Below are positions 6,469 through 59,965 of a stretch of 64,000 nt of DNA, piece after piece. The notes beneath the pieces were generated by a model. That model saw only the letters and a program-made list of their open reading frames with translations. It was not told the origin of the DNA and searched no databases. Within the stretch, counting starts at the first letter, position 1. Each line of letters begins with the position of its first letter. Origin of the DNA: Candidatus Sumerlaeia bacterium (GTDB lineage: Bacteria > Sumerlaeota > Sumerlaeia > MVZB01). The DNA lies in contig JBDKRG010000059.1 in assembly GCA_039683515.1 (NCBI GenBank), positions 38,615 through 102,614 on the forward strand, in the 5' to 3' direction. The position numbers and the translations under genes were made by a program.

Positions 6469-6471
6469 TGC

Positions 6472-8920: not shown

Positions 8921-9023
8921 CGGCCGGGCCGCCTCCAACGGCCACCCGCACTTTCTCAGATTCCTCCGCCAAAGGCAATTGTTTGAGTGATGAGGACTCC
9001 TCGATCATTCATCAAATTCGAAT

Positions 9024-11881: not shown

Positions 11882-11990
11882 TTACCGCCATGCTTCATCC
11901 GGCGGCGACAAAAATCTTTCATTATTCGGCCGGGGTTATATACTTCTCGCGTCGCCGTTCAGGTCAGTTCCTAACCGTCGAGGTGGTCTC

Positions 11991-12686
11991 ATGCGTTTTG
12001 CCCGAATCATTCCAGTCTGGTGCGTCGCGGCCGCCCTGCTGGCGGCCGGCGTCGGCTGCTCCGCGATGGACAAGTCGATGTTCAAGGGGACGTGGGTGTT
12101 CGTCGCCGTCGAGCGGGCGCCGTTCTCGCCTCCCCCGCCGCGGTTCGACATCATGGAATTCAAGGACGACCACAACCTGCGCCTCCACATGACCCCCGCG
12201 CGCGCCGACCTCGACGCCACCTACACGCTCGCGCAGGGCAGGCTCACGTTTTCGTTCCAGCCGCCCGACGCCGACGCGCCGGTCATCAATCGCGTCAAAT
12301 ACCGGTTCACGGGCGCCGGCAACAGCGTCCTGATGGAAGCCGAAGGGCTAGGCAGCGGCGTGGAGTATCTCTACCTCAGGGACACGAAGCTGCTGCCGAA
12401 CACGATCGCGGGGACCTATCGCTTCGCCGACAAGGACACCTCCTCGACGGCGACGCTGGCGCCGAACGGCACGCTCGACATCCAGCCGGAGAAGGTGGCC
12501 GGGTTTTACCGACTCTGGAAGTCGCCGGCCGGCGAGGCGCTCACGTGGGCGATCTTCATCCCGCAGGAAGGCTGGATGGCGTTCACCTACCGGATGAACA
12601 CGGACGGCAAGGACCTGCTCCTCGCCCCCGTCTACAACGGCAAGGCCCACAAAGAGGGGGAAATTCGCTGGATGCGGGTGGAGTAG
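11991..12686 (+). CDS. putative lipoprotein
   Basis: Signal peptide with lipobox (LLAAGVGC). GAGGTGG ribosome-binding site before the ATG. Confidence 0.55.
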   Translation: MRFARIIPVWCVAAALLAAGVGCSAMDKSMFKGTWVFVAVERAPFSPPPPRFDIMEFKDDHNLRLHMTPARADLDATYTLAQGRLTFSFQPPDADAPVINRVKYRFTGAGNSVLMEAEGLGSGVEYLYLRDTKLLPNTIAGTYRFADKDTSSTATLAPNGTLDIQPEKVAGFYRLWKSPAGEALTWAIFIPQEGWMAFTYRMNTDGKDLLLAPVYNGKAHKEGEIRWMRVE

Positions 12687-14892: not shown

Positions 14893-15000
14893 GGCGGCTT
14901 GTTTCCTGGCCGGGGGGCTTAAGTCGGGGACCCGGGATGTCGATGCATATCGATGAGGGCAATCATGTCCCCACTTCTCCAGGCCGAGGTCCGCTTGCCC

Positions 15001-17774: not shown

Positions 17775-19061
17775 TCAGCGCCAGGCGATGACTTTTTCCT
17801 CGGAGAGGCACTGGGTCTCCCACTGGAAGTCGGGGCGCGTCGCGCACCGGAACTTGCCCATGAAATCGCCGCGCACACCGCCGGTGTCGTTGACGTGGAA
17901 GTGCAGGACCTCGTCCTCGCGCGTCGACCGGTCGTAGTTTTCCTTCCACAGCTCGACGGAGACGCTGTGGCGGCCGGCGTTCAGGAAATTGCCGGGCACG
18001 TTGACCCACGTCCTGTACAGCCCCTCGGGCTTGATCTTCGTGTGCCACTCGTCGTTGTTGCTGATCGAGCTGAAGACCAGCGTGCTGTCCTCGTTCCAGA
18101 CGTGGGCGGTCGCGCCGGCGCGGATCCCCGCGCGCGTGACCCAGTATTCGATCGCGATCCGGAACGGCTCCTCGATGCGGATGTCGCCGTCGATCCGGCC
18201 GTCCTTGTCGTAGACGCAGACGCGGTGCAGCCGGAGGGTGCGGTCGCCGGGGGCGCGCGCCGGGTCCTCCCAGACGCGCTCGGGGCGGTCGTCGTGCTGG
18301 TCGCCGCCGAGGTAGCGGCTGACGACGTCGTTGACCTCGCCGTCCACGGCGAGGCCGCCGCCCTCGAGCATCACGGCCCGCTGGCACAGGTTGCGCACGG
18401 CGACCATGTTGTGGCTGACGAAGATGACCGTGCGGCCGTCGCGCGCCACGCTGTTCATCTTGCCGAGGCACTTCTTCTGGAACGCGGCGTCGCCGACGGC
18501 GAGGACCTCGTCGATCAGGAGGATTTCGGGCTCGAGGTGCGCCGCGACGGCGAACGCCAGGCGCACGTACATGCCCGAGCTGTAGCGCTTGACCGGCGTG
18601 TCGAGGAAGCGCTCGACCTCGGCGAAGGCGACGATCTCGTCGAACTTGCTCTTGATCTCGCGGCGCGTCATGCCGAGGATCGCGCCGTTGAGCATGATGT
18701 TTTCCCGGCCGCTCAGCTCGGGGTGGAAGCCCGTGCCGACCTCGAGAAGGCTCGCCACGCGGCCGCGCAGCCGCACCTCGCCCTCGGTCGGCTCGGTGAT
18801 CTGGCTGAGGAGCTTGAGGAGCGTCGACTTGCCGGCGCCGTTGCGGCCGATGAGCGCGACCGCCGTCCCCTCTTCGACCTCGAACGAAACGTGGCGCAGC
18901 GCCCAGAAGTCGCGCTCGTCCTTTTTCTCGCCCGCGGTGCCGCGGCGCAGCAGGGCGTTCACGCCATCGGCGATCTTGTCGCGCAGCGTGTCGTGACGGA
19001 GCGTGCCGCCGAGCTTGTAAAGCTTGCCCAGGTCGTGAATGGAGATGGCGGGGCGACTCAT
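17775..19061 (-). CDS. wzt: polysaccharide ABC exporter ATP-binding protein (Wzt/TagH type with C-terminal carbohydrate-binding-like domain)
   Basis: Walker A GRNGAGKST, signature YSSGM, Walker B LLIDE, plus a ~180-aa C-terminal extension. Immediately downstream of the wzm permease. Confidence 0.85.
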   Translation of the reverse strand: MSRPAISIHDLGKLYKLGGTLRHDTLRDKIADGVNALLRRGTAGEKKDERDFWALRHVSFEVEEGTAVALIGRNGAGKSTLLKLLSQITEPTEGEVRLRGRVASLLEVGTGFHPELSGRENIMLNGAILGMTRREIKSKFDEIVAFAEVERFLDTPVKRYSSGMYVRLAFAVAAHLEPEILLIDEVLAVGDAAFQKKCLGKMNSVARDGRTVIFVSHNMVAVRNLCQRAVMLEGGGLAVDGEVNDVVSRYLGGDQHDDRPERVWEDPARAPGDRTLRLHRVCVYDKDGRIDGDIRIEEPFRIAIEYWVTRAGIRAGATAHVWNEDSTLVFSSISNNDEWHTKIKPEGLYRTWVNVPGNFLNAGRHSVSVELWKENYDRSTREDEVLHFHVNDTGGVRGDFMGKFRCATRPDFQWETQCLSEEKVIAWR

Positions 19062-19074
19062 GCGGGAACTCCGG

Positions 19075-19968
19075 TCAGATCACGTCGGCGAACGAGCGCT
19101 CGAATTGGCGGAAATAGTAGGCGCCGCTGACAAGCAGCGCGACGGTGACGAACAGGCTGGCCAGCATCCCCGGCCAGAAAATCGCGAATTGCGGGTCGAC
19201 CTGCGGCCCGAGGATCGCCCAGCGGAAGCCGTCGATCGGGCCGACGACAGGGTTGAGGCTGAACACCAGCCGCCACGTCAGCCACCCGGGCGCCCACGCG
19301 GCGACGGCGCGCGTGGCGTGGCCGGCCATCTGGCCGCTGGTCAGCATCACCGGGCAGACGAAGATCCCGATCCGGATGATGAACGGCACGATGTGCTTGA
19401 TGTCGCGATACTTGACGTTGAGCGCGGCCAGCCACAGGCTCGCGCCGAACGCCGACGCGAACGCCATCAGGAAGAACAGCGGCAGGGCCAGCATCCGCGC
19501 GCCGAACGCCACGTCGTAATGAACCATCAGCACCATCATCATGAGCATGGAGATCAGGAAGTCGACGAGGCCGCTGAGCGTGGCCGACGCCGGGATGATC
19601 AGACGCGGGAAATAGATCTTGCTGATCATCTGCGACGACATCACGACCGACTGGCTCCCGGCCTGCAGGGCGCTGGAGAAGAACGACCACGGCAGCAGCC
19701 CGGCGAACGCGATGATCGCATACGGCCCCTTGACGTCCACTTTCACGATTCGGCTGAAGATCCAGGTGAAGACGATGACGGTGAGGAGCGGCTGCACGAC
19801 GGCCCAGGCGATGCCGATGGCCGTCTGCTTGTAGCGGACCATGATGTCGCGCCAGGTGAGGAAACCGAACAGCTCGCGGTAGCGCCACAGCTCCGCGTAA
19901 TCGATGCCGATCAGCCCGCGCCGGGGCTTGATGATCCGTTCCTTGAACTGAGTGGCCGTCTCGGCCAT
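19075..19968 (-). CDS. wzm: ABC-2 type polysaccharide exporter permease
   Basis: 297 aa with six TM segments. ABC-2 family pattern. 13-nt gap to wzt. Confidence 0.85.
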   Translation of the reverse strand: MAETATQFKERIIKPRRGLIGIDYAELWRYRELFGFLTWRDIMVRYKQTAIGIAWAVVQPLLTVIVFTWIFSRIVKVDVKGPYAIIAFAGLLPWSFFSSALQAGSQSVVMSSQMISKIYFPRLIIPASATLSGLVDFLISMLMMMVLMVHYDVAFGARMLALPLFFLMAFASAFGASLWLAALNVKYRDIKHIVPFIIRIGIFVCPVMLTSGQMAGHATRAVAAWAPGWLTWRLVFSLNPVVGPIDGFRWAILGPQVDPQFAIFWPGMLASLFVTVALLVSGAYYFRQFERSFADVI

Positions 19969-20058
19969 ACAAATATTCCCTCCGTGGAGCGCGCGCTGTC
20001 TTCCGTGGCGCCGATAATACTACCCGAAGATCTTATCGGCCGCCAGCCCGGAGTCCTG

Positions 20059-31889: not shown

Positions 31890-32783
31890 CTACGCGCCGA
31901 CCGGCGTCGGCGCGACGGAACCGCCGCGCAGCGTTCTTGCGAATCCGACCAGATGACCCAGAGTATCACAAAACGCCGCGTAGCGCATTTGCTGGCGAAT
32001 CTCGCGGGTCAGCTCGTGGCCGGCCACGACCAGCGCGACCCCGGTCTCCTCGGCCGTGGCGGCCAGCGTGTCGTACTGCTTGACGAAGGACGGGGGGGCC
32101 GAGACCTGCCCGACCGCGAGCCAGAAGAGCCTCGGGCGCAGGTCGCGCAGCAGCTCGCTGAGCGAACCCAGCGGCGCCTCGCACCCCAGCGACTCCGTCC
32201 GCCACCCGATCTCGCGCAGCGAGACGTCCATCATCGCCGTGGTCACGCCGAGCAACCGCTCGCCATGCATGCCGCAGCCGATCGCCAGCGAGGCCGTCTC
32301 GGCCGGGCGCTGCAGGCTCAGCCGCAACTCCCCGATCCAGCGCTCGATCATCTGCACCATGCGCATCTGCTGGTAGGGCTTGATCCGCCCCTGCGCGAAG
32401 GACTGCTCGAGATCGAGCAGGATCGGCGAGAGGGCCTTGTCGAAAATATCGCGCGCCTTCATGCCGGCCATGAACAGGTTCAGGCCGACCCGGCGGAAAC
32501 TCTCCTCGTCGCCCTCGAGCAGGGCCCGCAGCATCAGCTTGCGGCAGCGCTCGATGGCCAGGTTGCTGGTGGCCGTGGCCGGCGGCATGCCGAGCAGGTC
32601 CGGCCTCAGCAGCGGGTGGCCGCTTTTGAGCAGATACTGGATGACGCCGCTGACCGGCAGCCGGCGGTGGCCGCCCACGGTCCGGATCGTCGGGATCAAT
32701 CCCTTGTCGCACCACCGTTTGAGCGATGCGTCGCTGACGCCAAGCGCCATGGCCACTTGCCGTGTCGTAAGATGTTTAATCAT
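31890..32783 (-). CDS. MerR-family transcriptional regulator with C-terminal B12-binding-like domain (CarH/LitR type)
   Basis: N-terminal HTH LTTRQVAMALGVSDASLKRWCDKGLI. C-terminal Rossmann-like B12-binding-type domain. ATG at 32783 preferred over the track start 32813 (no ribosome-binding site there). Confidence 0.6.
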   Translation of the reverse strand: MIKHLTTRQVAMALGVSDASLKRWCDKGLIPTIRTVGGHRRLPVSGVIQYLLKSGHPLLRPDLLGMPPATATSNLAIERCRKLMLRALLEGDEESFRRVGLNLFMAGMKARDIFDKALSPILLDLEQSFAQGRIKPYQQMRMVQMIERWIGELRLSLQRPAETASLAIGCGMHGERLLGVTTAMMDVSLREIGWRTESLGCEAPLGSLSELLRDLRPRLFWLAVGQVSAPPSFVKQYDTLAATAEETGVALVVAGHELTREIRQQMRYAAFCDTLGHLVGFARTLRGGSVAPTPVGA

Positions 32784-33167
32784 AGGGGTGATCTCTTTTC
32801 TACGGTCGATCATATTGAATTGATCGATTTATACCACCTTCCGCCGTGTCTGTAAATACCCTATTTGATCTTTGTGTCGTAATTTGATGCTGGAGCGGTG
32901 TTGCTCGGATCTTATTTATTCTCAGTGCCATACAACACAATAAAGCCTTCTTTCGAAGCCCGGGAATCAATCGGATTTCATGACATAAATAATACTAAAT
33001 GAATATGGCACATTGAACGATTTGCACGAATTGCGAGCCGCGCCGTGGAGGGGACTTGAACCACCTGGCGTGCCGAACGGCCCCGCCTTTCCCTTTTTCC
33101 GATGCAAAAACCGACCGCTATGATAAATTTTCAGCGGTATTGAACCCAACAAGGGCCGATTCGCCTG

Positions 33168-34946
33168 ATGAAGCCGATCGTCATCGCCGAACAAATCCGC
33201 AAAAAGTATTCCCTGCATGCCGACGCCAACCGGCATTACGGCGTGGCCGACCTGTTCCGCGAGCTGACCGGCCGGCGCTCGTCCAACGCGCTGCGCCCGG
33301 ACGAGTTCTGGGCGGTCGACGGCATCTCGTTCTACCTCAACCCCGGCGACTCGATCGCGCTGGTCGGCCGCAACGGCTCGGGCAAGAGCACCATGCTCAA
33401 GCTCCTGGCCGGCCTCATCAAGCCCGACGACGGCGTGATCCAGATCAACGGCCGCGTCCAGGGGCTCATCAACCTGGGCGCCGGGTTCAGCCCGCGCCTT
33501 TCCGGGCGCGAGAACATCATGAACGGGGCGGCGCTCATGGGCCTCAGCCGCAAGCGCACCCTCGCGATCATGGACGAGATCGTCGACTTCGCCGAGTTGG
33601 GCGAGTTCATCGACAGCCCGGTCTCGACCTACAGCTCCGGCATGTATGCGCGCCTCGGCTTCTCGGTCGCCGTCCACCTCGACCCGCAGATCCTCCTCAT
33701 CGACGAGATCCTGTCGGTCGGCGACTTCGCGTTCCAGAACAAGTGCTTCGTCAAGATGCACGAGATCAAGAAGCGCGGCGCCACGATCGTCCTCGTCTCG
33801 CACAGCTTCACGCACGTCAACCAGATCTGCGACCAGGCGCTGTGGCTCGACCGCGGCCGGCTCGTCCAGGCCGGCGCCGCCGGCGACGTCACCAAGGCCT
33901 ACATGGAGCACCTCGAGGCCCGGCAGGTCGACGAGCTCAAGCGCCTGAACGAGGCCCAGGCCGGCCCCTCGACCAGCCGCACGCTCCAGGGCCTGTACGG
34001 CCCCATTTACGACGAGTTCGACAAGATCTCCGACCTGGAGTTCTCGTTCAGCTCCGGCGGCGGCGAGACCGACGTCGTCCGCACCCACGACGAGCTCCAG
34101 ATCGAATACCGCTTCACGCTCAACCAGCCCGTCACCGACCTGAACGTCTCGCTCGTCTTCATCCGCAAGGACGGCCTGTGGATGACGGCGATCTCGACGC
34201 TCAACGGCGACCTGGTCAGGGAAATCCACGACGGCCAGGTCCACTGCCGCGTGCGCATCGCCGACTGCCACCTGAACCCCGGCAACTACGTCCTCGTCAT
34301 GCCCGTGCACGAGGGCAAGAGCTACCTGTGGCGCAACATCGTCAAGGAGTTCGTCGTGGTGAGCCGCGAGCGGTTCACGTGGCACCTGACCGATTTCGAT
34401 TACTCCTACGAGGTCCTCAACGGCTCGACCGAGGGCCCGCTCCTGACCGAGCACAGTGAAGCCGCGCCGAAGCACGCGGCGGATGCGTCGACCAGCCCCA
34501 ACGACTCGGTCCGGCCGCTACATTTCCCGTACGAATACTCGATGGGCACGCTGCGGATGCGGCCGGCGGGCTCGACCGTCTGGGAATGGGAAGACCTCGG
34601 CGAGGCGATCGGCCGGGTGTTCGCCCCGAGGGACAAAGAACTGCTCCTGGTCGTCGGCGCGGACGCGGCCGGCCGGCTCTTCGGCCTGAGCCGACTGGCC
34701 CCGGACGACCTGTTCGGGCTGCACCTGGCGCGCACGCCCGTCCGCGACCAGGACCTGGCGCACCTGGCCCGCTTCACCGGCCTGCGCACGCTCGAGCTGC
34801 GCCACACCGAGATTACCGACCGCGCCCTCGAATCGCTCGCGCCGCTGAGGAGCTTGAAAACGCTGGCGCTTCCGGCCACCATCAGCGAGAAGGCCATGAA
34901 CCGGTTGCGTGAAACGCTCCCAGGCTGCACATTGATTCAGAACTGA
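33168..34946 (+). CDS. orphan Wzt-like polysaccharide ABC exporter ATPase with C-terminal jelly-roll-like domain and LRR-like tail module
   Basis: Walker A GRNGSGKST, YSSGM, Walker B LLIDE. Residues ~250-440 form a Wzt-C-like domain. The C-terminal ~140 aa (…WEWEDLGEAIG…LRTLELRHTEITD…LKTLALPATISEKAMNRLRETLPGC) is repeated twice in the glycosyltransferase at 38484. No adjacent wzm permease. Confidence 0.8.
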   Translation: MKPIVIAEQIRKKYSLHADANRHYGVADLFRELTGRRSSNALRPDEFWAVDGISFYLNPGDSIALVGRNGSGKSTMLKLLAGLIKPDDGVIQINGRVQGLINLGAGFSPRLSGRENIMNGAALMGLSRKRTLAIMDEIVDFAELGEFIDSPVSTYSSGMYARLGFSVAVHLDPQILLIDEILSVGDFAFQNKCFVKMHEIKKRGATIVLVSHSFTHVNQICDQALWLDRGRLVQAGAAGDVTKAYMEHLEARQVDELKRLNEAQAGPSTSRTLQGLYGPIYDEFDKISDLEFSFSSGGGETDVVRTHDELQIEYRFTLNQPVTDLNVSLVFIRKDGLWMTAISTLNGDLVREIHDGQVHCRVRIADCHLNPGNYVLVMPVHEGKSYLWRNIVKEFVVVSRERFTWHLTDFDYSYEVLNGSTEGPLLTEHSEAAPKHAADASTSPNDSVRPLHFPYEYSMGTLRMRPAGSTVWEWEDLGEAIGRVFAPRDKELLLVVGADAAGRLFGLSRLAPDDLFGLHLARTPVRDQDLAHLARFTGLRTLELRHTEITDRALESLAPLRSLKTLALPATISEKAMNRLRETLPGCTLIQN

Positions 34947-34963: not shown

Positions 34964-37900
34964 ATGAGCCAACTCACCAGCTCAATGCGAAAGATTGCCG
35001 GCCGCGCCCTGTCCCTCCACCCGGCGCTGGCGCGCCTCGCCGCGCGCATCGCCATCGACGACCGCCTCATCCCGTACCTGTTCGGCGACCCGCGCCTGCC
35101 GCTGCGGCTGAGCCTCGACGCTTCGCTGATGCGCGAGTTCCTCGCGCTGGCCGGCGACGACCGGCTGCTGGGCGCGATCCTCGACGAGCCGCTCCTGGGC
35201 GAGCGCATTTACCTGAGCGAGCCCGCGCTGCGCCAGCTCCGGTCCAACCCGCGCGTCCAGCATTTCCTCCTGCTCGACGACCAGGTCCTGCGATACGTCT
35301 GCAAGTCCAAGGAAGCCGCCGCGAAGCTCGCGGTCCATGCCGGCCTGCGCGAGCTGCTTCTGGCCGAGCAGCCGTTCCGGGAATGGGCGGCCCGAAACGA
35401 ACACGTTCTCCAGCTGATCCTCGGCCGCGAGGACATCGTCGAGAAATTCATCGCCGCGGACGGCCTCCTCGCGCGCATCGTCCGCCACCCGGCGCTGTTC
35501 GAGGGCGTCATCGCGGATAAGGATGTCCTCGCGCGCATCGTCCGTGACGAGCGCGTGGTCCGGCGCGGCCTCGCCGAGCCGTCGTGGCCCGCGATGGCGA
35601 CGGCCGAGTTGCTCAAGCGGTTCTCCGCCGACCCATCGATCCTCGATTCGATCATCAACGATGAATCCGTTGCCGACCGCTCGTACGCGAGCGAGCCGAT
35701 CCGCCGCCGCATTCACGCCGATATCCCCCTGTTTCTCGAAATCGCGAACTCCGGTTCAGGTCTTGCCGCGATCTCGGCCGACCGGCCACTCCTCCTCCGC
35801 ATCTTGAATGAGGCCGGCATCGAGGCGATCTTGGCGCATCCGGTGTTGCTCGATCGCGTCCTCGCCGACCCGCGCGCCTTCGACCGGATCCTGGGTCACG
35901 CCGGCCTCATCGCCCAACTGCTCCGGAACGAAACGGTCATCGATCAGCTTTTGGCGGACGATGAGCTGCTCCACAAGTTGCTTTCGAACGACGCGGCGTG
36001 GACGGCTCTGTTTGGCGATGATCTCTTCATCGATCGCATGATCGGCAACGGGCGCGTCTTCGAAAAAATCATCGCCGACGATCGGCTGCTTGCACGGCTT
36101 GTCGCGCACGACCGCGCCTTCGACAAGATCCTCGCCGACGACCGACTCCTGGCCCAACTCGTCGCGCATGATCGCGCATTCGCTCGCATCATCGCGAACG
36201 ACCGGCTCCTCGCCCGGCTCGTGGCCCATGACCGGGCGTTCGAGAAGATCGTCGCGAACGAACAACTCCTGTCGCGCCTGATCGCCGACGAACGCGCATT
36301 CGATATCATGATCGCCAACGACCGGCTCCTCGCCCGGCTCGTGGCCCACAATCGGGCGTTCGAGAAGATCGTCGCGAACGAACAGCTCCTGGCGCGCCTG
36401 ATCGCCGACGACCGCGCGTTCGGCCTCATCATCGCAAACGACCGACTGCTCGCCAAAGTCATCGATCACGACCGCGCATTCGGCGTCATCGTTGCCCATG
36501 ACGCGTTGCTGGTCAAAATCGTCGGCAACGAACGCGCATTCGAAAAGATTGCCGCGAACGAACGGCTCCTGGCGCGCCTGATCGCCGACGACCGCGCATT
36601 CGATATCATGATCGCAAACGACCGGCTTCTCGCCCGCCTGATCGCCCATGACCGCGCGTTCGGTTTCATCGTTGCTCATGACGCGTTGCTGGTTCAAATC
36701 GTCGGCAACGAACGCGCGTTCGAAAAGATTGCCGCGAACGAACAGCTCCTGGCGCGCCTGATCGCCGACGACCGCGCATTCGAAAAAATCACCGCCAACG
36801 AGCGGCTCCTGGCGCGGCTCGTCTCCGATCGCCGCGCCTTCGGCAAGATCCTCGACGACGAACAACTGCTCGCAAAGGTCGTCGCAAACGACCGGGCATT
36901 CGGCAAAATTCTCGCCGACGATCAGCTCCTCGCAAAACTCCTCTCGAACGAGCGCGCCTTCGGCCTTGTCATCGCCGACGGCCAACTCGTCTCGAGGCTT
37001 GTCTCGCATGAGGGCGCTTTCGATAAAATCATCGACGACGAACGACTCCTGGCCCGCATCATCCTCAGCGACCGCGCGTTCAATGCCATCGTCGCCGACG
37101 GCAATCTGCTTTCGCGCATCGTTTCCGACGAGCGCGCATTCGGCTTCATCCTCGCCGACGATCAGCTCATTGCGCGCGTCGTCTTGCATGATCGAGCCTT
37201 CGGCTTCATCGTCTCGAACGAACCGCTGCTCGACCGGCTCCTCGCGCACGCCCGCGCCTTCGAAGGAATCCTGTCGGATGACCGGCTCCTGGCCCGCGTC
37301 GTCACGAACGAGCGCGCGTTCGATCAAATCGTCGCCGATGAAAATCTCTTCAAGCGCCTTGTCGCGAACGAGCGGGCGCTCAAGGTGATTTTCGCCAACG
37401 AGTCGCTCTCCAAACGCATGTTCACCCACCCGAAGACCTCGGACTGGGTCAGGCAGACCCCGTCCATCTTCAGCCGGGTGGTCCTCAACGAGCAGGGCGC
37501 GCGCAAGATCATGACCAACCCGATCCTGGCGGCCAACCGGCCGATCGGCGGGCTCATGGAGGCGCACGCCGAATTCGACCGGATCTGGCTCGAAATCCAG
37601 CCGCACGTCGATTCGTCGCGGCCCGGGTTCGACGACCGCCTCCAGGAGGCGCTGAAAAAGCTCACGAAAATCGAGGACGTCCAGAGGACGCTGCTCGACA
37701 TCATTTGCGACGGCAACCGCGCGTATCTGAACGGCGCGACGATCGCGTTTACCGACCGGTTCTCGTTCTGGACCGAGCTCAACGAGATCATGCTCGACGA
37801 GGATTATTACTTCGAGACCGACGCCGCCAAGCCGCGCATCCTCGACTGCGGCACGAACTTCGGCCTCGCGATCTATTACTTCAAGCGTCTCTACCCGTCG

Positions 37901-38440
37901 GCCCGCGTGACAGGGTTCGAGCCCGTCCCGTCGCTCTGCCGGATGGCCCGCGCCAACGTGCGCGACAATGGCTTTAAAAACGTCAGGATCCACAAATACG
38001 CCGTCGCCGCGCAGCCCGGCCGCAAAAGATTCTACGAATCGAAATCATTCCCGATGGCGGGCTCGCTCACCGCGCGCCGGGTCGAGTTCGGCGACGATGT
38101 CGCCGAGATCAAGGTCGAATGCAGGCCGCTGAGCGAGTTCCTGGAGGAGCCGGTCCATTTCCTCAAGCTCGACATCGAGGGCTCGGAGGACTCGGTCCTG
38201 GCCGAGGCCGCCGCGCGGCTGCCGATGGTCCACAACATGTTCATCGAATACCACCACGGCGCGGGCGCTCCGGACGGCCGCCTCACCACCATCCTGCAAC
38301 TGCTCGACCGCTCCGGTTTCGACTGGCAGATCGGCAAGTCGTTCCACTTCGGCCGCCAGTCGCGCCGCCGCGCGCTCAGTTTCGCCGGCCGGCCCTTCAG
38401 CCTCAACATCTGGGCAAAGAACCGAGCACTCAACGACTGA
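34964..38440 (+). CDS. giant 20-residue tandem-repeat protein fused to C-terminal FkbM-family methyltransferase
   Basis: 1158 aa. At least ~25 clear units of consensus DRAFxKIxANxxLLARLIAD (60-nt DNA period) plus degenerate units. The C-terminal ~250 aa carry FkbM-type methyltransferase motifs (ILDCGTNFG…, FLKLDIEGSE). Confidence 0.75.
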   Translation: MSQLTSSMRKIAGRALSLHPALARLAARIAIDDRLIPYLFGDPRLPLRLSLDASLMREFLALAGDDRLLGAILDEPLLGERIYLSEPALRQLRSNPRVQHFLLLDDQVLRYVCKSKEAAAKLAVHAGLRELLLAEQPFREWAARNEHVLQLILGREDIVEKFIAADGLLARIVRHPALFEGVIADKDVLARIVRDERVVRRGLAEPSWPAMATAELLKRFSADPSILDSIINDESVADRSYASEPIRRRIHADIPLFLEIANSGSGLAAISADRPLLLRILNEAGIEAILAHPVLLDRVLADPRAFDRILGHAGLIAQLLRNETVIDQLLADDELLHKLLSNDAAWTALFGDDLFIDRMIGNGRVFEKIIADDRLLARLVAHDRAFDKILADDRLLAQLVAHDRAFARIIANDRLLARLVAHDRAFEKIVANEQLLSRLIADERAFDIMIANDRLLARLVAHNRAFEKIVANEQLLARLIADDRAFGLIIANDRLLAKVIDHDRAFGVIVAHDALLVKIVGNERAFEKIAANERLLARLIADDRAFDIMIANDRLLARLIAHDRAFGFIVAHDALLVQIVGNERAFEKIAANEQLLARLIADDRAFEKITANERLLARLVSDRRAFGKILDDEQLLAKVVANDRAFGKILADDQLLAKLLSNERAFGLVIADGQLVSRLVSHEGAFDKIIDDERLLARIILSDRAFNAIVADGNLLSRIVSDERAFGFILADDQLIARVVLHDRAFGFIVSNEPLLDRLLAHARAFEGILSDDRLLARVVTNERAFDQIVADENLFKRLVANERALKVIFANESLSKRMFTHPKTSDWVRQTPSIFSRVVLNEQGARKIMTNPILAANRPIGGLMEAHAEFDRIWLEIQPHVDSSRPGFDDRLQEALKKLTKIEDVQRTLLDIICDGNRAYLNGATIAFTDRFSFWTELNEIMLDEDYYFETDAAKPRILDCGTNFGLAIYYFKRLYPSARVTGFEPVPSLCRMARANVRDNGFKNVRIHKYAVAAQPGRKRFYESKSFPMAGSLTARRVEFGDDVAEIKVECRPLSEFLEEPVHFLKLDIEGSEDSVLAEAAARLPMVHNMFIEYHHGAGAPDGRLTTILQLLDRSGFDWQIGKSFHFGRQSRRRALSFAGRPFSLNIWAKNRALND
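35790..37440 (+). repeat. coding 60-bp tandem repeat array (120-bp near-identical super-units in places)
   Basis: For example, 36290-36410 nearly duplicates 36170-36290. The repeats also keep the antisense frame open (track ORF 35756..37993 minus), which I treat as an artefact. Confidence 0.85.
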
Positions 38441-38483
38441 CGGATTTTATTCATCACTCCTCATTCATCTTTAGGAATTTAAA

Positions 38484-41432
38484 ATGCCGATTGTCTGGAC
38501 CAAGAACTTCCCCGCGAGCGAACGCCCCCTCGGATACCTGCGCCTCCTGCTGGCCCGCTACCGCTACCATAACCGGCTCGTCCCGACGCTGCGCGGCGGC
38601 CTGCCCGCCGTGCGCGAAGTCCCCGGCTACAAGGCCGTCCTCAAAAGCTGGCGCAACAAGCACCGCGGCCGGCGAGCGTTCGTCATCGGCAACGGCCCGA
38701 GCCTCAACCGCATGGACCTCTCGCCGCTCCGGGACGAAATCACGATCGGCTGCAACGCGATCTACAAAAACTTCGCCCAGTGGGGGTGGCATACCGACTA
38801 CCTCCTCTTCGAGGACATCGAGCAGACCGAGCTGCGCCGCAAGGACATCCCCGGCGTCAAGGGCCCGATGAAGCTCCTCGGCCTGCACAACGCCTACGCG
38901 ATCAAGGCCGACGCCGACACGTTCTTCATGAACGTCCGCAACCTCGACGCGGCCTTTATGGACGAACAGTTTCCGCAGTTTTCCAAGGATTTCGGCCACA
39001 TCGTCCACCTTGCGAGCACGGTCACCCACATCGGCCTTCAGCTGGCCTGGCACCTCGGGTGCGACCCCGTCTACCTGATCGGCGTCGACCACAACTACGG
39101 CGAGCTGCCGCGCCTCTACCCGCCGTGCAAGATCACGATCACCGAGGACAACTACGACCTCGTCCGCGGCATCCACGTCCAGGACGACTACTACAAGATC
39201 GGCGACGTGATCGGCGTCCCGCCGGTCGACTACATGGAGGCCGGCTACCGCAAGGCGCGCGAGGCGTTCGAGGAGGACGGCCGCCGGGTCATCAACGCCG
39301 GCCTCGACAGCAAGCTCGAGGTCTTCGAGAAGGCCGAATTCGCCGCGCTGTTCACAAAGCCCGAGCCAAGCCCGAAGGATGCGGACGGAAAACCGAAGGT
39401 CCTGTTCATCACCCACGACGTCGGCCGGCTCGGCGCGCAGATGTCGCTGCTGGGGCTGATCCGGCGGCTGCGCGCCACGCACGGCTTCGATTGCCGCGTC
39501 CTCGTCCGCGAGCCCAACGGCACGCTCATGGGCGAATTCAAAAAACTCGGCGAGACGGACGTCTTCTGGCCCGCCGACGCCCCGCGCACGATCGGCGGTC
39601 ACCAGAAGGCGATCCTCGACAAGACGCGCGCATGGGCGCCCGACCTCATTTACTCCAACACCGCCGTCAACGGCGACGTCACCGAATACCTCGGCTCGAT
39701 CGCCCCGGTCGTCGTTCACGTGCACGAGCTCGAGTGGTACCTGAAGACGCTCGACGAGCCGCGCCACCGCGCGCTTGTCAGCCAGCCGGCGCTTTACATC
39801 GCGTGCTCGGACGCGGTCAGGCGAAACCTCGTCGCGAACCACTCGATCCCCGTTGGCAAGATCGAAGTCATGTACGAGTCGATCGACTTCGACGACGTGC
39901 GCGGCAAAACGAACGCCGTCCCGCGCGAGGAAATCCGCCGCAAGCTCGGTATTCCGGCCGACGCCGTCGTCGTCGGCAATTGCGGCCGCATCGACGAGCG
40001 CAAGGGCTGGGACCTGTTCGTCGACATCGCCGAGCGCGTGATCAAGGCCAACGACAATGTTTATTTCCTCTGGGTCGGCCACGGCCCCAACCACGCCGAC
40101 CTCATCAAGGCCGCCGAGGCGCGCGGCATCGCCGACCGCGTCAAGGCGCCCGGCCCGCAGGAGAACCCGTTCCCGTACTTCAACTCGATGGACATCGCTC
40201 TCGTGACTTCGCGCGACGACCCGTTCCCGCTGGTCGTCATGGAAGCGGCGTTCCACGGCTGCCCGGTCTGCGCGTTCGCGTCCTCCGGCGGGGCGTGCGA
40301 GTTCATCGGTTCCGATCGCGGATTGACCGTGCCCGAGGTCGACGCCGCCGCGATGGCCGCGCAGATCGACCGGCTCGTGCGCGACGCGGAACTGCGCAAA
40401 AAGCTCGGCGAAAACGCGCGCCGCGCCGCGATGGGCTACGACACCGAGCCGATCGCCAGGCGCCTCATGCAAATCCTCGGCGATCGCTTCGGATTCGGCT
40501 CGCTCAGTCCATCTCGTCCGCAATCCGATGCTTCACGCATCCTTTCGTTCCCGTCGCGCGCGGTCGGCAAGCTGCAAATCCGCGACGCCGGCTCGCGCGT
40601 CTGGTCGTGGCGCGACCTCGCACCGGCCGCCGGCCACGTCGAGGTCCCGCCGGGCCAGGAAGTCCTCTTCCTGCTCGACCGCGACGCCGCGTCCGACGTC
40701 TCGTTCTTCAGCGCCCTGGAGCCCGACGCGATCCAGTCGATGTTCCTCGGCCGCACGCAATTGAACGACCGCCAGATCGAAAACGTCGCGCGCATGAGCG
40801 GCCTCTTGACGCTCGACCTGCGCGAGACGCCGATCACCGACACAAGCGCCGGCCACCTCGCCAGGCTGACCGCGCTCAAGTCGCTCGTCCTCCCGTCGCA
40901 GATCACCGAGGCCGCCGTCGCGCGCCTCAAGACCGCCCTGCCCAATTGCAACGTCACGCGCGCCGACGGCCCGCCGACGCTCGCGCAGGCGCAGCCCGGC
41001 GGCCGGCGCACCGTCACGTTCCCGGAGAAATCCGTCGGCTTGCTCATGACCCGGCCGTGGGGCCTGACGGTGTGGAACTGGAACGAGCTCGGCTCGGCGA
41101 AGGGAGAGGTGGCCGTCCCGCCGCGCAGCGAGCTGATGCTGGTCGTCAGCCGCGGCTGCGCGAATGATTTAGGTTTTTTGGACCAATTAAATCCCGATGA
41201 CATCCAGTCGATCCACATGCGCCAGGCGGCGATCGGCGACGATCAATTGAAGCGCCTCGCGCGCCTGACCGGCCTGCGCACGCTCGACCTGCGCGACAGC
41301 AAGATCACCGACGCCGGCACGCAACAACTGAAGTCGCTACTCAATTTGAAACTGTTGAACCTGCCAGATCAAATCACGGCCAATGTAAGAGCGGACCTCA
41401 AGAAATCCCTGCGTGATTGCAGAATCAACTAA
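38484..41432 (+). CDS. multidomain glycosyltransferase: DUF115 (Maf/CstII-like, GNGPS motif) + GT4 glycosyltransferase + two LRR-like tail modules
   Basis: N-terminus …RAFVIGNGPSLN… (DUF115 / motility-associated-factor / sialyltransferase-like). Middle: GT-B family-4 motifs (…GNCGRIDERKGWDLF…, EAAFHGCPV…). C-terminal 290 aa hold two copies of the module shared with the Wzt-like ATPase. Confidence 0.7.
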   Translation: MPIVWTKNFPASERPLGYLRLLLARYRYHNRLVPTLRGGLPAVREVPGYKAVLKSWRNKHRGRRAFVIGNGPSLNRMDLSPLRDEITIGCNAIYKNFAQWGWHTDYLLFEDIEQTELRRKDIPGVKGPMKLLGLHNAYAIKADADTFFMNVRNLDAAFMDEQFPQFSKDFGHIVHLASTVTHIGLQLAWHLGCDPVYLIGVDHNYGELPRLYPPCKITITEDNYDLVRGIHVQDDYYKIGDVIGVPPVDYMEAGYRKAREAFEEDGRRVINAGLDSKLEVFEKAEFAALFTKPEPSPKDADGKPKVLFITHDVGRLGAQMSLLGLIRRLRATHGFDCRVLVREPNGTLMGEFKKLGETDVFWPADAPRTIGGHQKAILDKTRAWAPDLIYSNTAVNGDVTEYLGSIAPVVVHVHELEWYLKTLDEPRHRALVSQPALYIACSDAVRRNLVANHSIPVGKIEVMYESIDFDDVRGKTNAVPREEIRRKLGIPADAVVVGNCGRIDERKGWDLFVDIAERVIKANDNVYFLWVGHGPNHADLIKAAEARGIADRVKAPGPQENPFPYFNSMDIALVTSRDDPFPLVVMEAAFHGCPVCAFASSGGACEFIGSDRGLTVPEVDAAAMAAQIDRLVRDAELRKKLGENARRAAMGYDTEPIARRLMQILGDRFGFGSLSPSRPQSDASRILSFPSRAVGKLQIRDAGSRVWSWRDLAPAAGHVEVPPGQEVLFLLDRDAASDVSFFSALEPDAIQSMFLGRTQLNDRQIENVARMSGLLTLDLRETPITDTSAGHLARLTALKSLVLPSQITEAAVARLKTALPNCNVTRADGPPTLAQAQPGGRRTVTFPEKSVGLLMTRPWGLTVWNWNELGSAKGEVAVPPRSELMLVVSRGCANDLGFLDQLNPDDIQSIHMRQAAIGDDQLKRLARLTGLRTLDLRDSKITDAGTQQLKSLLNLKLLNLPDQITANVRADLKKSLRDCRIN

Positions 41433-41434
41433 GC

Positions 41435-41466
41435 GATGAGAGATGAAATAATTCTCATCTCTCATC
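41435..41466. terminator. bidirectional terminator-like hairpin (GATGAGAGATGA stem)
   Basis: gatgagagatgaaataattctcatctctcatc (12-bp stem) lies between convergent genes. More ctcatc units follow. Confidence 0.55.
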
Positions 41467-41489
41467 TCTCATAGCTCATCTCTATCTCT

Positions 41490-42869
41490 CTATCCCTTCC
41501 GCATCCGCACGATCGTCTCGATGTGGTACGTGTGCGGGAAGAGGTCGACGGGCTGCACGGCTTCGATCTTGTAGCCGTGGTCCTCGAACTCGAGCAGGTC
41601 GCGCGCGAGCGTCGCCGGATTGCACGAGACGTAAACGAAGACCGGCGCGCCCAACTCGATCAGGCCGCGCCGCGAGCGCTTGTCCATGCCGCCGCGCGGC
41701 GGGTCGATGATAATCCTCGAAAACTCGCCGCCGGCCGCTTGTTTAGCAAGCGGCAGACCCTCGTCCATTGGCGCGGCCAGGAACGTGACCCCCTCGATCC
41801 CGTTGCGCCGGGCGTTCTCGCGGGCGTCCCAGATCGCCTCGCGGATCAGCTCGACGCCGACCACGTTGGCGCCCTGTCTGGCGCAGTGCAGCGCGATCGA
41901 GCCCGCGCCGCAGAACGCGTCGAGGACGCGCGTCCCCGGCTCGATCTGCGCCATCTCGACGACCTTCGCGTAGAGCAGCTCGGCCGCGACGGTGTTCGTC
42001 TGGAAGAACGACTGCGGCGAAATCCGGAACGTCAGGCCGTTGACCGTCTCGATCAGCTCCGGCTCGCCCCAGCGCCACGCCTCCTTCTCGATTCGCGCGA
42101 CGTCGCTCATCCCCGTATACAAGCCCCACATCATTCCCTTGAACCCCGGGACCTTCGCCGCGAGCCGCTCGGCAAGGGCTTCCTTGTCGGGCAGCGTTCC
42201 GCGTTGCGTGATCAGCACGAGGATGCATTCGCCGGTCGTGCGGGAGTGCCTCATCATGGCGTGGCGCAAAAATTTCGTGTGCGTCTTGGGGTCGTAGGCC
42301 TCGAGCCCGTGCTCGCGCACGTAGGCCTGGACCTCGGCGAGCATGACGTCGAGCGACTCCGGCTGAAGCAGGCACGCCGGCACCTCGAAGACGCGGTCGT
42401 AGCGGCCCGGGACGTGGAACCCGAGCACGCTTTTCGCCTCGCCGTCGACTCCGAACGTGAATTCCATCTTGTTGCGGTAGCGCCACTGCACGGGCGAGCC
42501 GATGATCGGCATCACCTCGAAATCGCGCTGGCGGCCGATGTGCGCGATCGTGTCGAGGACCTGCTTCTGTTTCCAGACGAGCTGCTGGTCATACGTGAAA
42601 TTCTGCCACGTGCACCCGCCGCAGTACCCGAACAGGGGGCACGGCGGATCGGCGATCCGATGCGGCGAGGGGCGCTCGATCTTCTCGATCACCGCCTGCG
42701 CATGATTCGCCTTTTTCTTGATGATCCGCGCCGAGACGAGCTCGCCCGGGAGCGCCCCCTCGACGAAAACCACGAATCCGTCGAGCTTGCCGACCCCAAG
42801 CCCGCCATAAGCCAAATCCTCGATTTCGACGCTGACGACGTCGTTTTTGCAGACCGGTTTTTGATTCAT
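41490..42869 (-). CDS. rlmD: 23S rRNA (uracil-5-)-methyltransferase RlmD/RumA family (TRAM + Fe-S + SAM MTase)
   Basis: TRAM domain at the N-terminus. Cys cluster CPLFGYCGGC. SAM-binding motif VLDAFCGAGS. PPRGG and a catalytic Cys near the C-terminus. ATG at 42869 preferred to the track TTG at 42890. Confidence 0.8.
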   Translation of the reverse strand: MNQKPVCKNDVVSVEIEDLAYGGLGVGKLDGFVVFVEGALPGELVSARIIKKKANHAQAVIEKIERPSPHRIADPPCPLFGYCGGCTWQNFTYDQQLVWKQKQVLDTIAHIGRQRDFEVMPIIGSPVQWRYRNKMEFTFGVDGEAKSVLGFHVPGRYDRVFEVPACLLQPESLDVMLAEVQAYVREHGLEAYDPKTHTKFLRHAMMRHSRTTGECILVLITQRGTLPDKEALAERLAAKVPGFKGMMWGLYTGMSDVARIEKEAWRWGEPELIETVNGLTFRISPQSFFQTNTVAAELLYAKVVEMAQIEPGTRVLDAFCGAGSIALHCARQGANVVGVELIREAIWDARENARRNGIEGVTFLAAPMDEGLPLAKQAAGGEFSRIIIDPPRGGMDKRSRRGLIELGAPVFVYVSCNPATLARDLLEFEDHGYKIEAVQPVDLFPHTYHIETIVRMRKG

Positions 42870-59278: not shown

Positions 59279-59965
59279 ATGACTATATCAGATTCAACAG
59301 AATCGCTGAAAAGTCATCCTGGTTTTGGAGGAGCGTTGCTCGCCGATAGCGCGACACAAACAGATACTGGGAAAGTTAATCTCCAAGGAATATTCACAAT
59401 GTTCTTGGCTTGGGGTTTTCCATGCTCAAGAACATGGTTTCTGACATTTACAGCATTTGATGTGCCCAACTACGACACATCGGTCAGTATTGGTGTGCGG
59501 AAAGCCGGATCGAGTTCAATTTCAAAACTGTCTAACGTGAAGGTTTCAGAGGGAAGTAAAGGTCCTTCCACTGTTAGTGTTCAGTTAAGGCATCGTTTCA
59601 ATTCGGCAGGAAGATATGAATTAGTGTGTACATTTCGTAAATCAGTAAAAAAATTGAGGATCCCGTTTGAAGTGCGGTGTAGAGAGTGGCCAGAGTTCTC
59701 AGAGGAAGAAATTGCTTTCTCACGTAAAGATTCTCATATCCCAATGAGAATTCGAGCCAATGTCCAATGCAAAAAATGCTCACATGCCTATATCTTTGAA
59801 GAGGCAGTCTTACAACAGAAATCGAAGGGGGGCATTCAGCGATTTCCCACTAACGGTCGATTTAAATGTGAGGAATGTGGTCATACAATGAATTTGCTAG
59901 ATATCCAAGGGCAAATGAGAGCCTCTCTAAAAGAACTTGTGCGCAATGCCATGAAAAAGGACTGA
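59279..59965 (+). CDS. hypothetical protein with C-terminal CxxC…CxxC zinc-ribbon (islet gene A)
   Basis: 228 aa. Beta-rich N-terminal ~160 aa, then CKKCSHAY…(29 aa)…CEECGHT. AT-rich codon usage unlike the flanking genes. Confidence 0.55.
   Translation: MTISDSTESLKSHPGFGGALLADSATQTDTGKVNLQGIFTMFLAWGFPCSRTWFLTFTAFDVPNYDTSVSIGVRKAGSSSISKLSNVKVSEGSKGPSTVSVQLRHRFNSAGRYELVCTFRKSVKKLRIPFEVRCREWPEFSEEEIAFSRKDSHIPMRIRANVQCKKCSHAYIFEEAVLQQKSKGGIQRFPTNGRFKCEECGHTMNLLDIQGQMRASLKELVRNAMKKD

Follow-up and report, generated by a model that had tools for sequence, protein, structure and literature searches.

An open reading frame at 34964-38440 (+ strand) in a 64,000-nucleotide stretch of DNA from a Candidatus Sumerlaeia MAG, hereafter the window, encodes a 1158-aa protein in which a long array of short helical repeats leads into an FkbM methyltransferase domain. 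We judge the chances to be about even that this protein is a chain-terminating methyltransferase mounted on a solenoid spacer in an ABC-transporter-dependent glycan pathway. It probably caps sugar chains and, by analogy with studied terminators, its rod may set their length; it is analogous to WbdD or WbbB, not a member of the WbdD family.

Genomic context

The gene is flanked, in a tight operon, by a Wzt-type ABC ATPase of 592 aa upstream (33168-34946, +; 18 nt from its stop codon) and a 982-aa glycosyltransferase, a putative polymerase, downstream (38484-41432, +; 44 nt away), as a preliminary description of this DNA had proposed; in this three-gene module the FkbM domain is the sole modifying enzyme. 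Orthologs open with a homologous MSxLTS, which supports the start codon of the 1158-aa frame. [quoted passage not shown] The glycosyltransferase, 100% identical to the NCBI entry 'MAG: glycosyltransferase [Candidatus Sumerlaeia bacterium]', contains MptE-like (aa 55-205) and GT4 (aa 317-647) domains by Pfam, and two tandem beta+LRR modules (aa 681-825 and 842-982). A module of ~145 aa of this type also forms the C-terminus of the ATPase (aa ~445-590, nt 34500-34937), with 42-43% identity to the C-terminus of the glycosyltransferase.

The ABC-transporter-dependent glycan setting proposed earlier agrees with the CBM of the Wzt protein, but wzm is not adjacent here. The only ABC-2 permease within the window is a Wzm (19075-20019, -; Pfam ABC2_membrane, NCBIfam Wzm/RfbD-like below cut-off) located 13 kb from the operon, and it is possibly the partner of the Wzt at 33168. 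A second Wzt-like ATPase, with no CBM detected, is encoded at 17775-19079 (-; Pfam ABC_tran). Upstream of the operon and divergent from it, a gene for a MerR-type regulator with a B12-binding domain (31890-32813, -; Pfam HTH_17, MerR and B12-binding_2) possibly controls its expression; the related loci L001 and L002 have a gene at the same position, with MerR/HTH Pfam matches on record for L001 only. No initiating transferase or ligase was found among the other window ORFs scanned, several of which lacked any Pfam match; this, like the distance of wzm, counts against the proposed pathway.

Alternatively, the locus could be a protein (flagellin or S-layer) glycosylation island, with a Maf-like role for the MptE-like domain, whose family PF01973 covers the Maf flagellin glycosyltransferases, and with the methyltransferase acting on a protein-linked nonulosonic-acid glycan. 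Three alphaproteobacterial loci (L011, L012 and L020) have MptE-like neighbours and no Wzt(CBM), a variant locus carries CMP-sugar genes, and FkbM genes are reported from flagellin glycosylation islands (PMC4875605, PMC5109656). However, no flagellar genes were seen among the window ORFs scanned, and the Wzt with CBM, plus wzm in relatives, indicate an ABC-exported lipid-linked polymer, making a glycosylation island very unlikely. An S-layer glycan made via an ABC-exported lipid-linked polymer would still suit the capping explanation.

Sequence of the repeat array

The regular 60-nt repeat of the preliminary description is present in the 1158-aa frame: Tandem Repeats Finder gave periods of 60, 120 and 180 nt over 36059-36964 (scores 424-669), and protein self-identity was 0.355 at lags of 20, 40 and 60 residues, 0.19 at lag 10 and ~0.05 off-period. 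Each 20-aa unit consists of two ten-residue half-units with the consensus [N/D/H][D/E]R[A/L][F/L]x[K/R][I/L][V/I]A, in agreement with the DRAFxKIxANxxLLARLIAD reported earlier. A unit HMM detected 23 full-length units (46 helices), each with E between 1e-10 and 6e-14, in a crisp array at aa 362-821 (36047-37426, +), which is the zone of variable unit number; weak partial matches reach back to about aa 65, and degenerate units to about aa 100. Preceding the crisp array are an N-terminal head (aa 1-100; 34964-35263, +), comprising a basic segment and then the first degenerate helices, and a stretch of degenerate ten-residue helical repeats (aa ~100-361; 35264-36046, +), assigned from AlphaFold2 and of ortholog-conserved length. 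The last degenerate helices (aa 822-861) and a helical pre-domain of ~100 aa (aa 862-958), recognized by subfamily conservation, follow at 37427-37837 (+). The earlier figure of ~25-35 repeats was roughly right, with 23 crisp units, or ~38 when counting the ~76 ten-residue helices modelled by AlphaFold2 between aa 100 and 861.

The near-identical super-units described before were also recovered, with 92% nucleotide identity between units 422 and 462 (120-nt offset) and 97% between units 522 and 582 (180-nt offset). Most units are 55-77% identical, recent copies being only about 10 central units, and mean pairwise unit identity was 0.66, 0.80 and 0.48 at codon positions 1, 2 and 3, respectively.

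A contig of the Logan assembly SRR15035646 matches window positions 36754-42480 with 0 mismatches; it begins within the array, so that independent confirmation covers the distal array only. The break of this k=31 contig at 36754, and the exact 1158-aa product not being on record, would fit an assembly artefact, in which unit number was collapsed or expanded in the MAG and the extreme length is not real. We consider this highly improbable, because the longest exact direct repeat in the array DNA is 45 nt, resolvable by standard metagenome k-mers, the reading frame is open over 1380 nt with individually distinct units, and the same architecture is found in orthologs from other assemblies.

Changes in unit number among orthologs

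Two syntenic orthologs were found in related MAGs, the exact clade comprising only three orthologs in the databases searched; N-terminal peptide patterns retrieved no close relatives from JGI metagenome contigs. The N- and C-terminal regions keep their length, and the degenerate region (aa ~100-361) shows a single 1-aa indel among the three proteins. Relative to the 23 units of the window, the two ortholog arrays lack exactly 13 and 17, leaving about 10 and about 6, in line with the earlier idea of a variable copy number. Recent unit duplications are specific to each lineage, and the closest relative of a unit usually lies within the same protein (20/23 for window units).

Unit number shifts over evolutionary time through in-frame duplication or deletion of two- or three-unit blocks, with no rapid slippage. 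A phase-variable locus, with lengths altered by slippage as first suggested, was rejected: most units are old and diverged, third-position identity is well below that at second positions (0.48 vs 0.80), and exact repeats do not exceed 45 nt.

Predicted fold of the array

AlphaFold2 modelled the crisp array with pLDDT of 80-93 and the degenerate repeats at aa ~100-361 with 55-78, the latter as short helices and with a low-confidence stretch at aa 217-252; pLDDT was below 50 in the N-terminal head, and pTM was 0.57, or 0.38 for the full-length model. The helices break every ten residues, and each 10-mer has N/D at phase 0 and D/E at phase 1, as would fit short, separate helices that each carry an N-cap. 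In fold comparisons, the array matched the three-helix-per-turn solenoid of PDB 7QLR, the receptor-binding protein Gp22 of C. difficile phage CDHS-1, with a fit clearly above that to generic alpha-solenoids.

As modelled, the array forms a Gp22-type alpha-solenoid, with ~3 ten-residue helices per turn in a right-handed superhelix, and its ~760 residues are predicted to be extended and rigid-to-springy, not globular. The preliminary description had anticipated an extended spacer, as is now predicted, and had left open a solenoid or a coiled coil; the coiled coil was rejected because of the helix breaks and the match to 7QLR. With an assumed rise of ~1 nm per turn, we estimate ~0.6-0.65 nm per 20-aa unit and a rod of about 24-25 nm, with the two orthologs falling short of this by about 8 and 11 nm. 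Alpha-solenoids are more flexible than coiled coils, and this counts against the rod being a ruler.

Methyltransferase domain and conserved ends

The FkbM SAM methyltransferase domain proposed earlier occupies, at aa 959-1119 and with a C-terminal tail, the end of the gene (37838-38440, +), scoring above cut-off with both PF05050 (aa 961-1119; 58.2 bits vs 22.7) and TIGR01444 (87.9 bits vs 37.7). SAM motif I (D-x-G-x-x-x-G) is intact as ILDCGTNFG, with D961, G963 and G967 invariant in an alignment of 33 family members, which also contains conserved positions in the pre-domain region. The other Pfam domains matched in the 1158-aa protein were weak generic methyltransferase matches only; no kinase domain was detected, and the RfbT model gave no match at E <= 0.01. 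The FkbM domain had pLDDT below 50 in the full-length AlphaFold2 model, owing to an input alignment of 3 rows.

Conservation of the N-terminal head equals that of the catalytic core: across the three orthologs, 70-72% of the first 80 columns of the alignment are invariant. Its first 35 residues have a net charge of +4, a moderate hydrophobic moment (0.48) and no transmembrane segment. In jackhmmer searches the N-terminal segment gave co-linear alignments with the N-terminal ends of many family members; the head profile drifted into the repeats, and these are to be read as co-linear N-terminal matches only, not as a clean domain family. From its sequence, the head is a candidate docking end.

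Internal sugars and compounds other than sugars are also methylated by FkbM enzymes, which counts against capping. The protein could instead decorate the chain without terminating it, the array only localising or stabilising the enzyme and chain length being determined by something else, such as the ratio of transporter to polymerase in K. pneumoniae O2a. Such decoration agrees with the functional breadth of the FkbM family, with the plain FkbM genes of 250-300 aa that are common beside Wzm/Wzt pairs without CBM and with the O2a and O1 precedents (PMC11231755). Nevertheless, the adjoining Wzt has a CBM, which accompanies a terminal cap in studied systems (PMC11231755), and it is the array-bearing subfamily that is found together with Wzt proteins having a CBM, so that we consider non-terminating decoration quite unlikely.

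Array-bearing methyltransferases in other bacteria

Relatives were gathered by exhaustive HMMER search and a C-terminal query, a word-index search being swamped by repeat words (3 matches). Among the 150 best representatives, the majority begin to match at about query aa 850-920. The FkbM subfamily occurs in several phyla with helical arrays of 10/20-, 24-, 40- or 46-residue units, and its N-terminal extensions range from 0 to 880 aa; some members have short arrays or none, part of which may be truncated gene calls. One match, P0107 (3285 aa), was discarded as a low-complexity false match. The family conserves the property of a spacer rather than its sequence.

Array-bearing genes usually adjoin Wzt(CBM) and MptE-like glycosyltransferases. 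Some array-bearing relatives lie outside glycan loci (e.g. L007 and L008), which, like the members with short arrays or none, counts against the capping reading. The module recurs beside Wzt(CBM) in Nitrospirales, Nitrospinaceae and Oceanicoccus, and beside both Wzt(CBM) and an adjoining wzm in Marinicaulis, Maricaulis, a farmland metagenome and a Logan assembly; wzm adjoins in L005, L009, L084 and L086, and not in the window, L001 or L002. Orthologs of the glycosyltransferase adjoin the array-FkbM gene in L001-L003, L084 and L086, and in a second Sumerlaeia MAG this gene is directly followed by an O-antigen-ligase-like gene. Domains were also found in other combinations: P0025 joins GT4, an array of 24-aa units and FkbM, in that order, in a single chain, P0140 joins the array type of the window to a different methyltransferase family, L006 joins it to a glycosyltransferase, and P0099 matches both the FkbM and RfbT Pfam models.

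Alpha-solenoids are typically binding platforms, as with HEAT, ARM and TPR, and the array might be a scaffold, not a ruler, that assembles polymerase, Wzt ATPase and methyltransferase, possibly via the shared beta+LRR modules, its length affecting stoichiometry or nothing. The presence of the same LRR-type module once in Wzt and twice in the glycosyltransferase would suit a scaffold, as would the K. pneumoniae O4 terminator, with a TPR-like bundle of unknown role, and the dependence of O9a chain length also on complex stoichiometry (PMC11231755). Yet both unit sequence and unit length (10/20, 24, 40 and 46 aa) vary across the family, which disfavours a specific binding surface, and the LRR module is missing from the Wzt proteins, and from some glycosyltransferases, at other array-bearing loci; we therefore regard a scaffold as rather unlikely. 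A tie between LRR modules and the N-terminal head is speculation, and the two do not always occur together; the head is present in L004, whose glycosyltransferase gave no match to LRR-module queries.

Comparison with known chain terminators

Wzt proteins with a CBM export terminated chains only, the terminator being placed distally on an extended helical ruler, and in current work an extended coiled coil is the characteristic marker of terminator/ruler proteins (PMC11231755). WbdD of E. coli O9a and K. pneumoniae O3 and O5 is a methyltransferase-containing terminator at one end of a long helical spacer, as the window protein would be; for the anchoring or recruitment region at the other end of the spacer, the conserved N-terminal head is a candidate counterpart (PMC11231755). 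In both systems a separate multi-domain GT4 enzyme, WbdA or the putative polymerase of the window, and a Wzt with CBM are present (PMC11231755). Unlike the coiled coil of WbdD, the window spacer is predicted to be an alpha-solenoid of ten-residue helices that can fold as a monomer; its catalytic domain is C-terminal, of the FkbM family and without a kinase, the amphipathic membrane helix of WbdD has no demonstrated counterpart and, as noted, wzm is distant.

In WbbB (K. pneumoniae O12 and Raoultella terrigena) and ORF6 of K. pneumoniae O7, an extended helical ruler lies between the terminator and polymerase glycosyltransferases within one polypeptide (PMC11231755), the layout also of P0025. 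In contrast, the window glycosyltransferase is a separate gene, its candidate ruler is a tandem-repeat solenoid, and its terminator would be a methyltransferase, not a beta-Kdo transferase or a methyltransferase-kinase pair.

The Vibrio cholerae O1 O antigen is made by an ABC-transporter pathway. Its methyltransferase RfbT/WbeT acts, as would the window protein, on a terminal residue, the O-antigen perosamine (PMC9929944, PMC4232259). RfbT differs in being a small stand-alone enzyme without spacer, whose methylation switches serotype and has no known role in determining chain length. In the literature searched, no paper tied FkbM enzymes or solenoid repeats to chain-length control.

A putative repeat-number ruler

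By analogy with WbdD and Wzt, the MptE-like and GT4 protein would polymerise, on the cytoplasmic side of the membrane, a glycan linked to a lipid, the FkbM domain would O-methylate its non-reducing end, and the CBM of Wzt would recognise the capped end and license export. The helical array would hold the putative N-terminal docking head apart from the C-terminal catalytic domain, so that the methyltransferase would reach only sufficiently long chains.

The chain-terminating ruler envisaged in the preliminary description is consistent with the genetic setting, the extended array, the variable unit number, the unrelated unit lengths in other phyla and the GT-array-FkbM chain of one relative; the array is predicted not to be a coiled coil, slippage is not supported and wzm is not adjacent. 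Tentatively, and with somewhat less than even confidence, we suggest that these proteins may constitute a second class of molecular ruler for glycans, unrelated in structure to the first, in which an alpha-solenoid lies between a docking head and a capping methyltransferase. Repeat number would quantise chain length, at ~0.3 nm per helix, and in-frame block duplications would retune it during evolution; the class would be widespread in Sumerlaeota, Nitrospirota, Nitrospinota, Proteobacteria and others, with interchangeable 10/20-, 24-, 40- and 46-aa repeats.

The array itself is a long natural example of a rare fold, so far solved only in the phage protein Gp22. If solenoid arrays do the job of a ruler, genome surveys based on coiled coils overlook a large number of systems in phyla that have received little study. 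A repeat-number ruler, if true, would make chain length adjustable in fixed steps by the addition or removal of units, rendering the hypothesis directly testable, and could serve the glycoengineering of polysaccharides of defined length.

Organization of the operon

The gene for the 1158-aa repeat protein (34964-38440, + strand) is the middle member of a tight three-gene operon. Upstream, across an 18-nt gap, lies the gene for a 592-aa Wzt-type ATPase (33168-34946), composed of an ABC_tran domain and a Wzt_C carbohydrate-binding module (CBM), and 44 nt past the stop codon of the repeat gene begins that for a 982-aa glycosyltransferase (GT; 38484-41432). The GT combines MptE-like and GT4 domains with an LRR-like C-terminus, and its sequence matches, at 100% identity, an NCBI protein from a Candidatus Sumerlaeia MAG. 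The window has a G+C content of ~65%, and third-position GC cleanly told real genes apart from spurious ORFs. Tandem Repeats Finder, a unit HMM and Pfam-type domains confirmed the preliminary description of a protein with a 60-nt repeat period and an FkbM methyltransferase domain, encoded between a Wzt ATPase and a large GT.

The operon is bordered by unrelated genes: thiamine genes, an epimerase gene and a divergent regulator on one side, and genes for an RNA methyltransferase, a radical-SAM protein, an FAA hydrolase and a UDP-glucose dehydrogenase on the other. The regulator (31890-32813, - strand) is of the MerR type with a B12-binding domain, similar to CarH/LitR, which hints that light or cobalamin may control the glycan genes; both syntenic MAG loci described below (L001 and L002) have a gene at this position, with MerR/HTH matches recorded for L001 only. 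The sole ABC-2 permease within the window (19075-20019, - strand), 13 kb from the operon, is part of a second transporter, a Wzm permease paired with a 434-aa Wzt-like ATPase (17775-20019, - strand) in which Pfam found no CBM. In many other phyla, close homologs of this pair adjoin plain FkbM genes of 250-300 aa.

Elsewhere in the window, a BatD/TPR (Bat-like) gene set (4606-9004, - strand) and a gene for an 877-aa protein with cadherin domains (14923-17556, + strand) have no apparent relation to the repeat protein. Between 58000 and 62000 the G+C content drops from ~0.65 to 0.55 over small ORFs, including one for a DUF6941 protein (59279-59965), and this segment may be foreign DNA.

A module of ~145 aa, formed by a beta-rich part and then leucine-rich repeats (34500-34937 and 40524-41429), ends Wzt as a single copy and the GT as a tandem pair, with 42-43% identity (E 3e-34). 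The ~1000-aa GT orthologs of L001, L002 and the Nitrospirales locus L003 carry it as well, and it was undetected on the shorter Wzt proteins of loci L003, L084 and L086. This may be a docking module that keeps the complex together. Its presence on both neighbors also lends something to a less likely alternative in which the array is a binding scaffold, because the shared module could link all three operon proteins.

Repeat units of the array

The repeat gene showed periods of 60, 120 and 180 nt with Tandem Repeats Finder, and the self-identity of its product was 0.355 at lags of 20, 40 and 60 residues, 0.19 at a lag of 10 and ~0.05 elsewhere. The unit HMM delimited 23 complete units of 20 aa (aa 362-821), each made of two 10-residue half-units with the consensus [N/D/H][D/E]R[A/L][F/L]x[K/R][I/L][V/I]A; the N/D and then D/E opening each 10-mer is the pattern typical of helix N-caps.

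Some ten central units (aa 402-601) arose by recent copying: their DNA shares 87-97% identity with that of units two or three positions away. Distal units are 55-77% identical. This distal divergence, together with mean pairwise unit identities of 0.66, 0.80 and 0.48 at the first, second and third codon positions, indicates that most units are old and retained by selection at the protein level. The phase-variable slippage of repeats that had been proposed was therefore not supported, and a slippage-prone simple repeat was ruled out, since the units are mostly old and diverged and the longest exact direct repeat in the array DNA is 45 nt.

An assembly artefact is an improbable alternative explanation of the array length. 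Assembly with short k-mers will systematically break up genes of this array type; a Logan contig (L083; k=31 assembly of run SRR15035646), identical to 36754-42480, starts mid-array at 36754.

Changes in unit number among orthologs

Two proteins from unclassified MAGs, P0001 (897 aa) and P0002 (814 aa), are clearly orthologous to the window protein, with 57% and 55% overall identity to it. Their loci are syntenic, with thiG, thiH, thiE, epimerase, regulator, Wzt(CBM), array-FkbM, GT, RNA methyltransferase and radical-SAM genes. In the three-protein alignment, window residues 1-360 and 800-1158 kept their length, save for one 1-aa indel. The rest of the length difference falls entirely within the array, amounting to exactly 13 (P0001) and 17 (P0002) units of 20 aa. 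Near-identical blocks were lineage-specific (40 and 60 aa in the window protein, three of 40 aa in P0001 and four of 20 aa in P0002), and 20 of the 23 window units have their closest match in another unit of the same protein, indicating that each lineage has undergone its own recent changes in unit number.

Invariant positions make up 70-72% of the first 80 alignment columns, matching the catalytic core, and 25-50% of the remaining solenoid. The N-terminal segment of the window protein is basic and free of transmembrane stretches, and its model is of low confidence; this combination would suit a segment folding on a partner or a membrane.

Predicted fold of the array

The AlphaFold2 model of the full-length protein, which rests on a three-sequence alignment, consists, over roughly aa 100-860, of 9-residue helices interrupted by one-residue breaks. 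The pLDDT was 80-91 over the 23-unit array, with low confidence for the methyltransferase domain and for residues 1-98. A model of the array only (aa 342-861; mean pLDDT 83.7, pTM 0.57) contained 52 helices, almost every one 9 residues long. Independent comparisons converged on one solved structure. The sole PDB sequence match was chain 7qlr_A (E 1e-4 to 1e-5), from the receptor-binding protein Gp22 of Clostridioides difficile phage CDHS-1, partly ungapped over ~146 residues and in the same 10-residue register; 7qlr was also the top Foldseek match. In that structure, short helices joined by 1-3-residue loops form a right-handed superhelix with three helices per turn (bioRxiv 10.1101/2021.07.05.451159). 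We thus conclude from the models and matches that the array is predicted to be an alpha-solenoid of this rare type, with three helices per turn, and not the coiled coil considered initially, which the breaks between its short helices also contradict.

With three helices per turn, a 20-aa unit makes two-thirds of a turn and 60 aa make two turns, which fits the 180-nt duplication blocks. Assuming a rise of ~1 nm per turn, an ordinary helix packing distance that we infer for this fold, each unit would add an estimated ~0.6-0.65 nm, and the ~76 helices of the array would span ~24-25 nm.

The methyltransferase family and its arrays

An exhaustive HMMER search yielded 264 representatives at E < 1e-30, most of them sharing the FkbM domain and the ~100-aa helical pre-domain ahead of it. 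Among 127 fetched sequences with the pre-domain and a Met start, the N-terminal extension ranged from 0 to ~880 aa, placing the window protein (861 aa) near the top, and internal periodicity was found in 45 of the 64 with extensions of at least 200 aa. Some short members may be truncated gene calls.

The closest relatives in GTDB genomes all carry helical tandem arrays, with differing unit lengths: 10 aa in a second Sumerlaeia MAG (L004, 1048 aa), Nitrospinaceae (L006, 876 aa) and Oceanicoccus (L013, 545 aa), 20 aa in Nitrospirales (L003, ~707-784 aa), 24 aa in Hydrogenedentales (L007 and L008, 544-577 aa), 40 aa in Marinicaulis (L005, 509 aa) and 46 aa in Maricaulis (L009, 1080 aa). A Wzt with CBM adjoins the array-FkbM gene in L001, L002, L003, L005, L006, L009 and L013, as does an MptE-like glycosyltransferase at most of these seven loci (in L013 the match is weak and partial), and wzm adjoins the module in L005 and L009. 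Two more loci show the full order wzm, wzt(CBM), array-FkbM (657 or 786 aa) and GT. No recognisable glycan locus surrounds the relatives in L007 and L008. In L004, an O-antigen-ligase-like (Wzy_C) gene (11122-12609) lies directly 3' of the array-FkbM gene.

Arrays are found on other enzymes too. Protein P0140 joins a 10-aa array to a Methyltransf_23 domain, an MptE-like/GT4 protein of L006 (12797-16261) has its own N-terminal array, P0025 combines GT4, a basic segment, ~17 units of 24 aa, the pre-domain and FkbM in a single chain, and P0003 is a GT4-FkbM fusion without an array. The rod sequence itself is not conserved; the constant of the family is a long helical repeat rod with a head or glycosyltransferase on one side and a capping-type enzyme on the other.

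A variant locus (L087, 802-11039; L088, 582-8023) encodes a GT ortholog with 58% identity, preceded by SIS, GFO_IDH_MocA, 2-Hacid_dh, DUF386, CTP_transf_3 and Glucosamine_iso genes of a CMP-sugar pathway, and by a short FkbM (192 aa) and a sulfotransferase. From this gene content, the substrate of the MptE-like domain may be a CMP-activated ulosonic acid, and chains may be capped by groups other than methyl.

Proposed role of the repeat protein

In studied ABC-transporter-dependent systems, a CBM-bearing Wzt exports only terminally capped chains; the cap is added by an enzyme placed at the distal tip of an extended coiled-coil ruler, a feature described as the characteristic marker of this strategy (PMC11231755). 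A methyltransferase that acts on an O antigen's terminal sugar, RfbT/WbeT, is also known (PMC9929944, PMC4232259). The window operon has a CBM-bearing Wzt, a multi-domain polymerase candidate and a single modifying enzyme, borne by a long rod whose other end is conserved. The most economical reading of this set is that the enzyme is a methyltransferase capping chains from a solenoid spacer, working like WbdD/WbbB, a proposal that we consider about evenly balanced. The likeness would lie in a capping enzyme on a long spacer alongside a CBM-bearing Wzt; the protein falls outside the WbdD/WbbB family, having an FkbM catalytic domain, no kinase and a spacer of another fold. The terminator on a ruler suggested initially is partly supported: the reading as a terminator on a spacer finds support, and the coiled coil gives way to the solenoid.

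Less probably, the same gene set could be a protein-glycosylation island, or the FkbM domain a non-terminating decoration enzyme. For a capping methyltransferase, the FkbM domain would methylate the chain terminus, the CBM of Wzt would recognise the methyl cap, each rod end would have its docking place, and the length of the rod would fix that of the chain. We hold this last, specific claim, that rod length sets glycan chain length, to be somewhat doubtful. The gene architecture, the modelled fold, the variation in unit number and the conserved genetic association are established by our analyses, and the system merits experimental follow-up.
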